A program made the position numbers and the translations under genes. A stretch of 64,000 nt of DNA from a bacterium (lineage in GTDB: Bacteria; UBA8248). This document shows positions 4,557 through 52,791 of this stretch, one piece after another (position 1 is the stretch's first letter; each line of letters opens with the position of its first letter). The notes beneath the pieces were generated by a model. It worked only from the letters and a program-made list of their open reading frames with translations. It was not told where the DNA came from and did not search any database. The DNA lies in assembly GCA_965213625.1 (NCBI GenBank), contig CBDBZU010000004.1, positions 2,336,001 through 2,400,000 of the forward strand, given 5' to 3'.

Positions 4557-5960
4557 ATGGCGGCATATGACGTGGCGGTTATCGGCGGGGGACCTGCGGG
4601 CTATGTGGCGGGCGTGCGTGTGGCCCAGAGCGGGGGAAGCTGCGTGGTCATCGAACGAGACGAGCTGGGCGGCACCTGCCTGAACTGGGGCTGCATCCCG
4701 AGCAAGAGCCTGATCGCCGCCGCGGAAGTTTTGAGGAACATCAGGAACGCGGACGCCTACGGCATCGAGGTCACGGGCGAGGTGCGCGCCGATCTCGCTG
4801 CCATGGTCGAGCGCAAGGACAAGATAGTCGCAGGCCTGGTAAAGGGAATCGGCGGGCTGTTCAAGGCCCACGGGGTGGATCACATGGCGGGTGACGCCGA
4901 GATACTGGAGATGGGTAAAATCTCGGTGCGCGGAAAAGAAGGGGAACACGAGATAGTCGAGGCCGATAAGATCATCATCTGCACCGGTTCCCGGCCTGCG
5001 CAGATTTCCGCCTTTCCCATCGACGGTAATAAAATCATCTCCTCCGAACAGGCGGTGCATCTCAAAACTTTGCCCAAGAGGGTGCTCATCGTCGGCGCGG
5101 GCGTCATCGGCTGTGAGTTTGCGTGTCTGTATAGAGAACTGGGCGCCGAAGTCGTCATGGTGGAGTTGCTCGACCGCGTCCTGCCGCTGGGGGACGAGGA
5201 CGTCTCGAAACTCATGGCGCGCGAATTAAGAAAACAGAAGATTAAGGTGCGCCTGAATGAGAAGTTAACGGGCGTCTCGCGCAAGGGCAGGGCGATGGTC
5301 GCCGAATTCGAGGGTTCGGATGAGGAGGAACGCGCCGACCTCGTACTCGTCTCCGTGGGCCGGACGATGAACACCGACGGGCTGGGGCTCGAGCGAATCG
5401 GGGTGGAGCTCGGTCCGCGCGGCGAAATCAGGGTGAACGATATGATGGAGACGAACGTCGCGGGCGTTTATGCGGCGGGGGACGTGGTGGGCGAGCCCAT
5501 GCTCGCGCACGTGGCCTCGGCGGAAGGAGTCGCCGCTGCGGAAAACGCCATGGGCGCGGAGATTCGCATGGATTACCGGGCGATTCCGGCGGGTATCTTC
5601 ACGCATCCCGAGATCGGCGTCGTCGGCATGGCCGAGCACGAGGCGGAGAAGGCCGGTCACGCAGTGCGCGTGGGCAAGTTCTCGGTGCGCTCTCTGGGCA
5701 AGGCGCAGGCCGAACGCGCGCTGGAGGGCGAGGTGAAGGTCATCGCCGACGCGGGAGATGACGCCATTTTGGGCGTTCACATCGTAGGCGCCCACGCCGC
5801 TGACATCGTGCACGAGGCCGCCGTCGCCATGCAGCACCGCGTCACCGCCTCGGACCTGGCCGGCACCATCCACTCCCACCCCACGCTCTCGGAAGCCGTG
5901 ATGGAAGCGGCATTGGACGTCCACGGCGAAGCCATCCACGCGCCGCCGAAGAGACAGTAG
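4557..5960 (+). CDS. lpdA: Dihydrolipoyl dehydrogenase
   Basis: GGGPAG FAD motif, GGTCLNWGCIPSK redox disulfide, C-terminal HSHPTLSE. Confidence 0.95.
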   Translation: MAAYDVAVIGGGPAGYVAGVRVAQSGGSCVVIERDELGGTCLNWGCIPSKSLIAAAEVLRNIRNADAYGIEVTGEVRADLAAMVERKDKIVAGLVKGIGGLFKAHGVDHMAGDAEILEMGKISVRGKEGEHEIVEADKIIICTGSRPAQISAFPIDGNKIISSEQAVHLKTLPKRVLIVGAGVIGCEFACLYRELGAEVVMVELLDRVLPLGDEDVSKLMARELRKQKIKVRLNEKLTGVSRKGRAMVAEFEGSDEEERADLVLVSVGRTMNTDGLGLERIGVELGPRGEIRVNDMMETNVAGVYAAGDVVGEPMLAHVASAEGVAAAENAMGAEIRMDYRAIPAGIFTHPEIGVVGMAEHEAEKAGHAVRVGKFSVRSLGKAQAERALEGEVKVIADAGDDAILGVHIVGAHAADIVHEAAVAMQHRVTASDLAGTIHSHPTLSEAVMEAALDVHGEAIHAPPKRQ

Positions 5961-6067
5961 GCTTGCGCTCTGCGGGCTCGATTCTGGCTTTCTCTGGATT
6001 GTTGAATAAAGCCTTAATTTCTTGATTCGGCGTATAGGGCCGACTGGGGAGGGAGGGTTGTGGTTTT

Positions 6068-6092
6068 TGTAGGTCGGACATATATGTCTGAC
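6068..6092 (+). repeat. GTAG-REP variant of family A
   Basis: TGTAG-GTCGGACA-TATA-TGTCTGAC; same architecture with a different but still pairing stem. Confidence 0.7.
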
Positions 6093-6124
6093 ATACATGC
6101 GTACATGGACGCCCCCCTGGAATG

Positions 6125-6378
6125 CAAGCGGTTTTTTGGGAGGGTTCGGCGCAAAGCGGTTCGACTCAGTCGTACATTCGGCCTCTTCGTTGCGGCGCTT
6201 CGTAACGGCCGCGGGCCCGTATGGAGATGCGCGGGTCGGGTCCGAATCGGCCCGGCGAGCTCGATGGTTCGCTCGTCGCATGTAACTGGTTGCCCCGACC
6301 CCGTCTCGATGACCGTTTGCCCTTACTCCTCCTGTGGCCTGCCCACATTCCTCCCGGCTCTATCCGCGCGCCCGCCGC
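6125..6378 (-). ncRNA. Putative bridge RNA / seekRNA of the IS1111 element (ends approximate)
   Basis: Stem GGGTCGGG (6233-6240)/CCCGACCC (6294-6301) and cap stem GCGAGC/GCTCGT (6255-6276) enclose an internal loop whose two sides match the left and right target flanks; 6170-6177 matches the predicted circle junction. Confidence 0.72.
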
Positions 6379-7059
6379 TCAGGCGAGGGGCGCCGGTTCC
6401 CTGTAGTCGTCCTTGTTCCGCATCAGCGCCCACGCGATGCGCGCCATTTTGTTGGCCAGCGCCACCGCGACGAGCATCCTCGGCTTGCGCGCCAGCATCC
6501 GGGCCAGCCACGAACCCGGCGGCGCGCCGCGCCGGAGCGCCTGGCGAATCACCGACATCGCGCCCGTGACCAACAGCCGCCTCACGTCGCGCTGGCCCAT
6601 CTTCGATACCCGGCCCAGGCGGGGCTTGCCCCCCGTCGAGTGTTGCCGGGGCACCAGTCCCAGCCAGGCCGAGAAGTCCCGGCCCCGCCGGAAGTTCTCC
6701 ATCGGCGGCGCGAAGGCACGGATCGCAGACGCCGTAACCGGACCCACCCCCGGGATACGCATCAGACGCCGCGCCTCCGCGTCCGCCGCGTCGTTCTTGT
6801 GGCGCTTCACGTACGGCTTCACGTAGGCCGGCGGCGCGAGCCGAACCTCGTGGCCGAGCTTCGCAATCTCACGGCCCCAGCGGTGCGCCCCCGCGCACGC
6901 CTCCATCGCCACCACGCAGCGCGGCTGTTTGGCCAGGAAGTTCAGCAGACCCGCCCGACCGAGCTTCTTGCGGAACGCTACCGAACCGTCCGCGCGCGCC
7001 CCGTGGAGTTGAAAACTGTTTTTCGCCAAGTCGATGCCGATGATGTAGACTCCTTCCAT
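6379..7059 (-). pseudogene. IS110-family transposase with in-frame internal deletion (226 aa)
   Basis: IGIDLAK, AMEAC, KNDAADA (DEDD) fused directly to ARRLMRIPGVGP...WLGLVPRQHSTGG; the central coiled-coil region is missing. Confidence 0.85.
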
Positions 7060-7158
7060 GGATGCCTCCTTCCGGGCGGTGTGTGACGTTGCCTCGCCAC
7101 ATTCTAAACTGCCGGAAGGGGGCGTCCACCCCATCGGCCCGACCGGTTCGTGGCTTGC

Positions 7159-7183
7159 GGGTCGCATTTATGCGACCCCTACA
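7159..7183 (-). repeat. GTAG-REP, family A
   Basis: GGGTCGCATTTATGCGACCCCTACA, 1 mismatch to 1342-1366. Confidence 0.85.
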
Positions 7184-7284
7184 CCCCGAATAAGGAATGA
7201 CGGCAGTGGTCAATTCTGGGCGAAGAGGATTTTTCCAACAGCCCCCACAAGGCTCTCGAAACAGCCTTGCGGATTCCGTAATGC

Positions 7285-8265
7285 TTAATACGGCACGTCG
7301 ATGAGCATACCCTCACCCGATCGCATGTCTTCTTCCAGAAGCTCGCGCATCGCTTTCGTCACCGGGCCGGGCTTTCCGTCCCCGATGATTTGGTCATCCC
7401 ACTGCACCACGGGGGCGACGTATATCGAGCTTCCGATGAGCATCATCTCCGCGGACGCCTTGGCCTCGGCCACGGGAATGTCGTCCACCACCACGTCGGC
7501 GATGACCTCTTGCTCCACGAGGCGGCTTGCGAGTTCGAGCAGGCGCTTCACCGTGCAGCCCGAGAGGATGTTCTCGAATTTCGGGTGCCGCAGCACGCGC
7601 TCGTTCGTCACGAAGGCGCAGTTCATGTTCGAGCCCTCGCCCACGTTCCCGGCCTCATCCACGAAAATCCCGTTGTCCAAGCCCTGTTCTTTCGCCTCCA
7701 TCTGCATCAGCGTGTTGGGCAGGTAGTTCGTGCTCTTGGTGACGGCGTAGAGCGGCGGCTTGATGGGGTAGGTCGTCGTCATCACCCGCATTCCCTCGGC
7801 GTAGTAGCGCTCGGGATAATCCAGGCCGCCAAAGATCATCACGAAAAATGCAGGCTTGGCGTCGCCTGCAGGGATGAGCCCCAGGTTGCCTGTCCCGGAA
7901 GATGCCCAGTAGCGGATTGAACCCTCGCGGCGGCCCGAGAGCGCGCTCGTGCGGATGACGATATCGCGCATCTCCTCGCGGCTCGGCAGTTCGAGTTTCG
8001 ATGCCTCCGCTGAGCGGATGAAGCGGTCCAGATGGTTTTCCAGGTCGTAGATCTTCCCCTCGATGATGGCCGCCGTGTCGAAGATGCCGTGTCCCCGGTG
8101 CACCATGTGGTCGTCGAAGGGGATGACCATCAGGTCGGGGTCCGTCACCACGCCGCCCAGGTGGCTCGAATAAAACGCCGAATAATCGACCTCCTGCGTC
8201 TCGCGCAGGTTCTTGAGACTATCGAGGACGTCCTCTCTCGTGAGGACGCCGATGTTTTCCGCCAT
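7285..8265 (-). CDS. Class IV PLP aminotransferase (D-amino-acid transaminase / ADC lyase-like)
   Basis: PFDDHMVHRGHGIFDT, HLDRF, KSTNYLPN, EGSNMN, ILSGCT; AAGGAG RBS before ATG 8265. Confidence 0.88.
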   Translation of the reverse strand: MAENIGVLTREDVLDSLKNLRETQEVDYSAFYSSHLGGVVTDPDLMVIPFDDHMVHRGHGIFDTAAIIEGKIYDLENHLDRFIRSAEASKLELPSREEMRDIVIRTSALSGRREGSIRYWASSGTGNLGLIPAGDAKPAFFVMIFGGLDYPERYYAEGMRVMTTTYPIKPPLYAVTKSTNYLPNTLMQMEAKEQGLDNGIFVDEAGNVGEGSNMNCAFVTNERVLRHPKFENILSGCTVKRLLELASRLVEQEVIADVVVDDIPVAEAKASAEMMLIGSSIYVAPVVQWDDQIIGDGKPGPVTKAMRELLEEDMRSGEGMLIDVPY

Positions 8266-52568: not shown

Positions 52569-52791
52569 GGGGTTGTTGAAAAAGTCCAGATTTCGGGATT
52601 CGGAACGACGGATGTGAAGTTGTAGGGGTCGCATATATGCGACCCTGCCTTTTACGCCTGCCGACTATGGGCCGCATATATGCGGCCCCTACACGACCAA
52701 TCTTACCCACTCGCGCCGAGCCGGCTTCACATCCATCGCTTCGTGACACTCCATACCGCCCGTTCCCAGAGCCGGGTTATTCAACAACCCC
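52569..52791. mobile_element. MITE-like element with 12-bp TIRs and 4-bp TSD, carrying a REP doublet
   Basis: TTAC|GGGGTTGTTGAA ... TTCAACAACCCC|TTAC; inner IR GGATGTGAAG (52610-52619)/CTTCACATCC (52725-52734). Confidence 0.82.
52621..52693. repeat. Inverted GTAG-REP doublet (REPIN-like), family A
   Basis: Both arms identical to those of 1295-1366 in reverse orientation; the spacer is also homologous. Confidence 0.9.

Follow-up and report, generated by a model that had tools for sequence, protein, structure and literature searches.

An IS1111-Family Insertion Sequence in Host Repetitive Extragenic Palindromes, Probably Aimed by an RNA from Its Own Downstream Non-Coding End

Element at the Locus and Its Genomic Copies

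The DNA analyzed in this study, referred to below as the window, is a stretch of 64,000 nucleotides from a bacterium of the UBA8248 lineage (assembly GCA_965213625.1, contig CBDBZU010000004.1), corresponding to G000:C4:2336001-2400000, where G000 is the host genome and C4 denotes contig coordinates in it. A copy of an insertion sequence (IS) of the IS1111 family occupies window positions 6100-7136 on the minus strand, and all features of the element are read on that strand. Only 75 nt precede its transposase gene, while a non-coding end of 277 nt extends from the transposase stop to the right end. The insertion lies in a host repetitive extragenic palindrome (REP), and the present analysis concerns how the element is aimed at that repeat and what its non-coding end contributes.

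On the left, the target half CGGGC (7141-7137) and the core CG (7136-7135) are together identical to an RNA word encoded at 6254-6248. The element itself starts with the left terminal extension ATGGGG (7134-7129), which would serve as the right-donor sequence in a circular form; an ATGG.. left end was present in 63 of 63 relatives with callable ends, the end-calling pattern itself having included this motif. The 11-bp left subterminal inverted repeat (7128-7118), which was found in most relatives, is matched perfectly by the 11-bp right subterminal repeat (6116-6106). The right junction reads CCATGTA (6108-6102), CG (6101-6100) and CATGTATG (6099-6092), the right terminal extension TGTA plus the core occupying 6105-6100. 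The right target half CATGTATG and the remainder of the interrupted REP, a variant that recurs in the genome, extend over 6099-6068. If the core is given to the left end and the repeat is lengthened by one position, the terminal extensions measure 7 nt on the left and 3 nt on the right; the additional repeat position is paired in most relatives and is a G/T mismatch in the window element.

According to the published seekRNA work (PMC11187229), IS1111 elements have subterminal repeats of about 11-13 bp and asymmetric extensions of 7 nt on the left and 3 nt on the right, encode a transposase of 330-350 aa in which the motif GL-P----S(t)G occurs, and carry a non-coding region after that gene. The DEDD and PF02371 domains, the transposase length, the motif, the subterminal repeats and the long downstream non-coding region were all found here. 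Insertion was site- and orientation-specific without a long target duplication, with CG at both junctions in 5/5 copies. The window element is therefore a new IS1111-family member of an otherwise ordinary type.

The five copies, recovered by a DNA search of the genome, are 100% identical over every shared base. Three are intact (one of them at C4:2211879-2213275), with a full length of ca. 1.39 kb and a transposase of 341 aa. The intact protein matched NCBIfam NF033542, "IS110 family RNA-guided transposase" (316.5 bits, cut-off 140), as well as PF01548 (47.4 bits) and PF02371 (81.6 bits), and its motif reads GLVPRQHSTG. The window copy and the copy at C4:592771-593820 carry the same in-frame deletion of 345 bp, bounded by 15-nt direct repeats that agree at 14/15 positions. 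In the window, the deleted gene runs from its ATG at 7059 to the stop at 6381-6379 on the minus strand and encodes 226 aa, with the deletion junction just after 6772. Residues 97-211 of the intact protein are removed, i.e., 115 codons of the linker/coiled-coil part between the RuvC-like and C-terminal domains. The shortened protein keeps all four DEDD residues as well as the GL-P----TG motif, and PF02371 is still matched at 81.3 bits; because of the deletion, the DEDD domain PF01548 reached only 16.6 bits, below the cut-off of 29. With its transposase gene internally deleted, the window copy is not autonomous and, if it is mobile at all, would move only with transposase supplied by the three intact copies. 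Both deleted copies keep intact ends and an intact RNA region. The deletion had been left only implicit in a first-pass annotation of the window, which was made from the sequence of this one stretch.

Target in Host Repeats

All five copies have the same junctions in the same orientation, (C/A)GGGC-CG on the left and CATGTATG on the right, whereas their outer right flanks represent three different REP variants. The first-pass annotation had read both junctions and the shared CG core from the window copy and had expected a genome-wide tabulation of flanks to return the same site, and the complete copy set bore this out. Four insertions lie in perfect 15-nt sites and one in the A-variant. Nine GGGCCGCATGTATG sites in the genome are unoccupied, two of them perfect 15-mers, and 15 sites with one mismatch to the 15-nt target are likewise empty. 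The window itself contains an unoccupied REP at 1320-1306 on the minus strand (C4:2337320), which matches the target at 14/15 positions, as had been noted earlier, and an unoccupied REP pair of the targeted family in its GGGCCGCATATATG variant at 52669-52688 (C4:2388669/2388688).

The target repeats were provisionally assigned to REPs and bacterial interspersed mosaic elements (BIMEs) because they are paired palindromes with spacers, because a genome-wide count of the palindrome pattern gave 86 strand-wise matches, because the window insertion site is intergenic, lying between two convergent genes, and because a weak Y1-transposase match adjoins one of them. The target sites are halves of these palindromes. 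The sole Y1-transposase match (PF01797; C4:1978614-1978778, L128) scored 22.3 bits, or 27.5 bits with its neighbors, against a cut-off of 23, and is separated by ca. 0.6 kb from one of the targeted-family REPs; to judge from this match and its position, it is possibly a REP-associated tyrosine transposase (RAYT) for the targeted repeats.

Outside the element, the upstream REP unit of a BIME-like doublet, a palindromic variant, occupies 7183-7159 on the minus strand and is host sequence. It is followed by an 18-nt BIME spacer (7158-7141, minus strand) that is identical beside copies A, B and E and occurs nowhere else in the genome, where the nearest other match has two mismatches. Copies A (flank at window 7141-7183), B and E (C4 near 592.7 kb and 1823.7 kb) thus share an identical 49-nt left flank composed of REP unit, spacer and target half. 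All three instances of the exact spacer carry the element, and related spacers exist; the three may represent a small BIME subfamily, and the shared flank may also have been copied by conversion. A reading of the 49-nt flank as part of a longer mobile unit cut at the upstream REP was considered and rejected: the upstream REP fits the guides poorly, the would-be donor end is unlike the left end, and BIME spacers form families in this genome.

A 7417-nt contig of sequencing run X5 matched both flanks of the window element at ca. 93%, with position 6071 joined to 7156 and 54 other letters in place of 1084 nt. It probably comes from a related strain whose orthologous locus lacks the element.

Guide Words and RNA Fold

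Family alignment and covariation delimit a predicted seekRNA/bridge RNA core of ca. 159 nt, measured from outer stem to outer stem, at 6315-6157 on the minus strand. The outer stem P1 joins a 5' strand at 6315-6306 to a 3' strand at 6164-6157. The target loop inside it is closed by a perfect basal stem of 8 bp (6301-6294/6240-6233). Its 5' side carries the top-strand target guide UACAUGCG (6284-6277), complementary to the core and the first 6 nt of the right flank; a capping hairpin (6275-6256, with a 5-bp stem at 6275-6271/6260-6256) follows; and its 3' side carries the bottom-strand target guide CGGGCCG (6254-6248), identical to the left flank plus core. Further downstream lie a candidate right-donor guide, CUCCAU (6226-6221), the conserved hairpin P3 (6217-6180; 9 pairs, almost invariant), and the left-donor guide AUGUACGA (6177-6170), which equals the right end, the core and the first left-end base, i.e., the circle junction. 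P3 thus stands between the two donor words. The 8-bp stem, the capping hairpin, the three words UACAUGCG, CGGGCCG and AUGUACGA, and a TTGCAT-18 nt-TACGAT arrangement at the joined ends were all found where the earlier annotation had placed them. In published IS1111 seekRNAs, the match to the top strand comes before that to the bottom strand, and both cover an overlapping part of the target (PMC11187229); the window RNA has the same order, with the top-strand complement 5' of the bottom-strand complement.

A chance test was based on 20000 dinucleotide shuffles of the 277-nt non-coding end. The 8-mer complementary to core plus right flank appeared in 45 shuffles and the junction 8-mer in 28, and no shuffle (0/20000) contained all three words together.

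Relatives were collected by a protein-based scan of species genomes, which gave 80 loci, and by a search of 41 genomes (40 related genomes and G000), which gave 30 more. For 63 of the resulting 110 loci (L018-L127) the ends were callable, yielding 49 distinct non-coding ends; the other 47 loci, which were dropped before any count, had incomplete contigs or partial genes or belonged to a more distant subgroup with other end motifs. Structural alignments used 44 of the 49 ends, with L078, L091, L094, L115 and L123 excluded as misaligned, mis-called or near-duplicate. For the comparison of guides with flanks, 56 distinct rows were available, reduced to 41 distinct guide pairs with full flanks for permutations.

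The alignment of the relatives revealed one conserved fold with variable words at fixed places. In the RNAalifold consensus of 44 sequences, both sides had changed in 5 of the 8 pairs of the basal stem; inside this stem, the consensus also has two C-G pairs, one of which flips to G-C in 10 sequences. One pair of the capping hairpin showed 14 both-side changes among the 44 sequences. RNAalifold did not predict the outer stem on these 44 sequences, and it was counted by hand on the alignment columns: pairs 2-6 were paired in 38-43 of the 44 sequences, with GC/AU swaps, and the paired fraction was 0.78 vs. 0.15-0.43 in slid controls. Since the outer stem joins 6315-6306 to 6164-6157, the donor words lie in a multiloop. 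According to PMC11208160, donor nucleotides are often in a multiloop in IS1111, and a bridge RNA is predicted in the right end of 93% of IS1111 elements.

Covariation of Guides with Flanks

The first-pass annotation had proposed that guides and targets should covary across homologues, and such covariation was present. Of the 56 rows, 27 had a 3' loop word agreeing with the left flank plus core at all 7 positions, 15 had 6 agreements and 14 had fewer. In 21/56 rows, the 5' loop contained at least 8 contiguous bases complementary to the core plus right flank. Over the 41 guide pairs, the left-flank guide matched on average 4.1 of 5 non-core bases vs. 1.51 after permutation, and the mean longest complementary run of the right-flank guide was 6.05 vs. 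3.24. The observed mean was reached in 0/2000 permutations for the left and right guides alike, figures that are not probabilities because the relatives are kin.

Guides of same-genus relatives follow the REP variant of their own host. A relative with 85% protein identity carries the guide CGGGACG and has GGGACG flanks in 2/2 copies, and another with 82% protein identity carries GUAUAUGCG, has a CGCATATA flank and is inserted before CATATATG. The host genome also contains a second IS1111 family, with ca. 76% DNA identity to the first, whose RNA has the word GUAAGCG and a word predicting CGTTCGGTC. A relative of this second family in another genome was found in four copies exactly at GTAAG-CG/CA-TTCGGTC. 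Within the host genome, the second family is represented by an apparently intact locus with poor guide fit (C4:927666-928960), a locus split by an insertion of ca. 1.3 kb (C4:4129761-4132490) and a right-end fragment (C4:4124823-4124978).

In several relatives (L103, L113, L122 and L127 from one related genome, and also L109/L116, L125 and L040), the left core was CG and the right junction CA. The 5' loop word of the L103 group matches CA, and its 3' loop word and donor word read CG, which suggests either target and donor cores differing by one base or heteroduplex resolution.

Donor Module

The third RNA segment had been matched earlier to the predicted circle junction in the window element, and the same relation recurred in its relatives. 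Of 27 distinct guide/end combinations, 18 have the exact 7-mer of right end plus core within the left-donor guide, and another 6 have only its 5-mer lacking the core there (24/27 with the 5-mer in total). The three failing combinations comprised a single mismatch, a misalignment and a mis-called end. The left-donor word tracks the five variable bases of the right end together with the core, and this covariation spans CG, TG and AG cores and at least 10 different end words. Taken across the family, the covariation in these sequences supports a reading of the donor by the long form of the RNA.

For the right donor, the first-pass annotation had found no convincing guide. A candidate does exist in CUCCAU (6226-6221), which could pair with ATGGGG of the left end (five Watson-Crick pairs and a single G-U pair), and its assignment is weakly supported. 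Four of its six positions, those of the first four pairs, never vary, and the sole clean covariation is that of CGCCAU with ATGGCG (3/3). Covariation says little about a right-donor guide because the candidate is nearly invariant.

At a locus reached by two routes (L018 and L102), the sequence that normally follows the donor word recurs after a complete right end, with another right end 64 nt farther along. The arrangement amounts to a partial tandem duplication starting at a shared 8-9-mer. It is the product expected from recombination of guide-encoding DNA with a real end, and recombination of this kind at the DNA level is therefore possible.

Candidate Promoters and Expression

Ahead of the transposase gene, a promoter-like sequence, TGGACG, 16 nt, TAGAAT (7128-7101, minus strand), was identified by consensus match only, with one site found vs. 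0.1 expected. At the right end, the -35-like TTGCAT of a presumed junction promoter (6127-6122, minus strand) is followed by 18 nt and then by TA plus CG, which would abut the AT of the left end. The second hexamer, TACGAT, would form only on joining of the ends. Among the 49 distinct non-coding ends, 47 have TTGC at a constant distance from the right end, with a spacer of 17 nt in 43 and of 18 nt in the window element and its three nearest relatives. As a sequence pattern, this conserved spacing is compatible with the published junction promoters of this family.

Two RNA libraries, each from a different study, yielded contigs that span 6092-6417 and portions of the gene with 90-99% likeness, so that expression of the element RNA is weakly supported. 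No circle junction was found among the joints of sequence contigs, where joints with sides of 22-27 letters derive from REP repeats. Joints of 6092, 6095 or 6101 to 7158 or 7159 were considered as excision products or circles and rejected: their sides measure 25-26 letters, other letters lie between them, and they point to other BIME loci.

Proposed Mechanism and Alternative Explanations

The anatomy of the element, its copy set, its target, and the covariation of guides with flanks and with ends were observed directly. Our interpretation, which we hold with a probability of about 90%, is that this IS1111-family copy belongs to an element that moves as a circle and is aimed by an RNA from its own downstream non-coding end. 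The outer stem of that RNA would enclose two modules, one for the target and one for the donor. The 5' side of the target loop would pair with the top strand of the core and right flank (CG+CATGTA) and the 3' side with the bottom strand of the left flank and core (CGGGC+CG), and the paired guides would fix both the site and the orientation within the host REP. In the donor multiloop, around the conserved hairpin, AUGUACGA would match the right end plus core and CUCCAU would probably pair with the first six left-end bases, so that the two donor words together would hold the circle junction. Joining of the ends would place TTGCAT 18 nt upstream of the new TACGAT, yielding a promoter at the junction that would serve both the transposase gene and the RNA. 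By analogy with the published family, the RNA would act in a complex with the transposase, strands would be exchanged at CG in the circle, the promoter would be used, and mobilization in trans could occur.

Several observations weigh against this interpretation. The 7-mer CGGGCCG appeared in 3309 of the 20000 shuffles and is weak evidence alone. Folding of the single sequence gave no energy signal in the G+C-rich non-coding end, the predicted fold being no more stable than those of shuffles (z = +0.54, with 138/200 shuffles at least as good), and an Rfam scan of window positions 5500-7800, with E up to 1, matched no family. With the fold energy uninformative and an Rfam match absent, the test had to come from relatives, and the structure is supported by covariation rather than by energy. 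Those relatives are kin, and the permutation figures overstate their independence. Some relatives stand at sites that fit their guides poorly (14/56 rows match at 5/7 positions or fewer), and the left guide of element F, the in-genome member of the second family, matches its flank at only 5/7 positions. The right-donor candidate is nearly invariant and falls short of the core. The contigs from the RNA libraries show neither strand nor ends and may stem from relatives or from DNA carry-over. A donor-binding role of the second module is not established for the family, because a target-only RNA sufficed for ISEc11. Set beside these points, the insertion of all copies at one site, the empty sites, the covariation and the published word order support the earlier proposal of a REP-targeting, RNA-guided recombinase with a CG core.

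Recognition of the REP hairpin or of the inverted repeats by the protein, with the words being target or junction DNA captured by past recombination rather than guides, would account for the DNA of the donor word being that of the right end, for the partial duplicate at L018/L102 starting just after the donor word, and for a 7-mer that is common by chance. We consider it very improbable, as the words occupy fixed positions in a conserved fold with compensatory changes, one of them is the reverse complement of its flank and not a copy, and they change with the flanks over the 41 guide pairs while the inverted repeats and the protein stay similar; moreover, the RNA is essential and programmable in family members according to published experiments (PMC11187229). 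A narrower doubt concerns the second module (6232-6157), which could be conserved for RNA processing, for protein binding or as the junction promoter region, with no part in donor binding. The near absence of covariation in the right-donor candidate speaks for such a role, as does the finding that a target-only seekRNA was enough for movement of ISEc11, where the authors leave undecided what the long form does (PMC11187229). The left-donor word, on the other hand, follows five variable right-end bases and the core over three kinds of core and at least 10 end words, and we regard the absence of a donor role as unlikely.

The two deleted copies raise a separate question, namely whether they are dead relics that have not moved since the deletion, which would then have arisen twice by slippage or spread by gene conversion. 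We give this reading somewhat less than even odds. Recurrent slippage is favored by deletion ends lying in a 14/15 direct repeat, and conversion or another form of flank copying is hinted at by the identical 49-nt left flank of A, B and E with its unique spacer. Against it, the deleted copies are identical over shared bases to each other and to the intact copies, yet their loci differ, as do their outer flanks and right REP variants; both keep the ends and the RNA region, as a derivative mobilized in trans would; and derivatives resembling miniature inverted-repeat transposable elements (MITEs) that are moved by the family transposase are known for ISPpu9 (PMC12288879). The combined proposal that the window copy is a natural "mini-element" moved in trans to a second REP, and that the latter half of the long seekRNA forms a genuine multiloop for donor binding, is offered tentatively, and we would not put it at even odds. 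If true, such a mini-element would keep a complete guide RNA and both ends despite a defective transposase, and the donor reading would bear on a role of the second half of the long seekRNA that the published work leaves open (PMC11187229).

The element itself is ordinary, and its value lies in a clean natural data set of ca. 40 distinct relatives with one fold, many targets, and CG, TG and AG cores. These guide/target and guide/end pairs could serve to derive pairing rules for the IS1111 branch, which is less studied than IS621, and the two copies that share one deletion lend themselves to a simple natural test of mobilization in trans. Beyond the first-pass annotation, the present analysis adds the internal deletion, the presence of three intact copies, the outer stem with its multiloop, a right-donor candidate, and family-wide covariation for the donor reading.

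Comparison with Known Systems

The targeting of REPs by an IS1111 seekRNA element is not new, as ISPa11 of Pseudomonas aeruginosa has already been published. ISPa11, likewise of the IS1111 family, inserts at a fixed point in the host REP, and its seekRNA is encoded after the transposase gene, the top-strand match again standing 5' to the bottom-strand one (PMC11187229). It differs in host, REP and target word, with its insertion point given as GG*CG (PMC13604230), and was compared here by description only. ISEc11 and ISXne4 resemble the window element in organization, with subterminal repeats, a transposase of ca. 340 aa and a non-coding end after the gene; the long and short forms of their seekRNA and their junction promoter have presumed counterparts here. 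Natural redirection through altered versions of both target words is known from close relatives, and the same was seen among the same-genus relatives in our study. ISEc11 has a short linear target rather than a REP, and its target module alone sufficed, whereas the second module of the window family covaries with the donor end.

As proposed for the window element, IS621 and ISCro4 of the IS110 group use an RNA with target and donor loops that read both strands around a 2-nt core, and REPs are targets of IS621 as well. Among solved structures, these two are the closest (ISCro4, E = 2.5e-11; IS621, E = 2.3e-8), matching the C-terminal domain, with marginal N-terminal similarity. Unlike that of the window element, the IS110-group RNA is located upstream in the left end and has a reversed guide order, and the inverted repeats of that group measure 2-3 bp; its donor guides lie in a simple internal loop, in contrast to the multiloop found here.

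A parallel to the deleted copies is offered by ISPpu9 and MITEPpu9 in Pseudomonas putida, where a REP- and BIME-targeting family member has non-autonomous derivatives using its transposase (PMC12288879). MITEPpu9 carries a small RNA gene between end-like boxes, whereas the window derivative is a plain transposase deletion that keeps the whole guide RNA. In word order, subterminal repeats, transposase length and downstream RNA, the window element fits the published IS1111 seekRNA/bridge-RNA systems, ISPa11 included.

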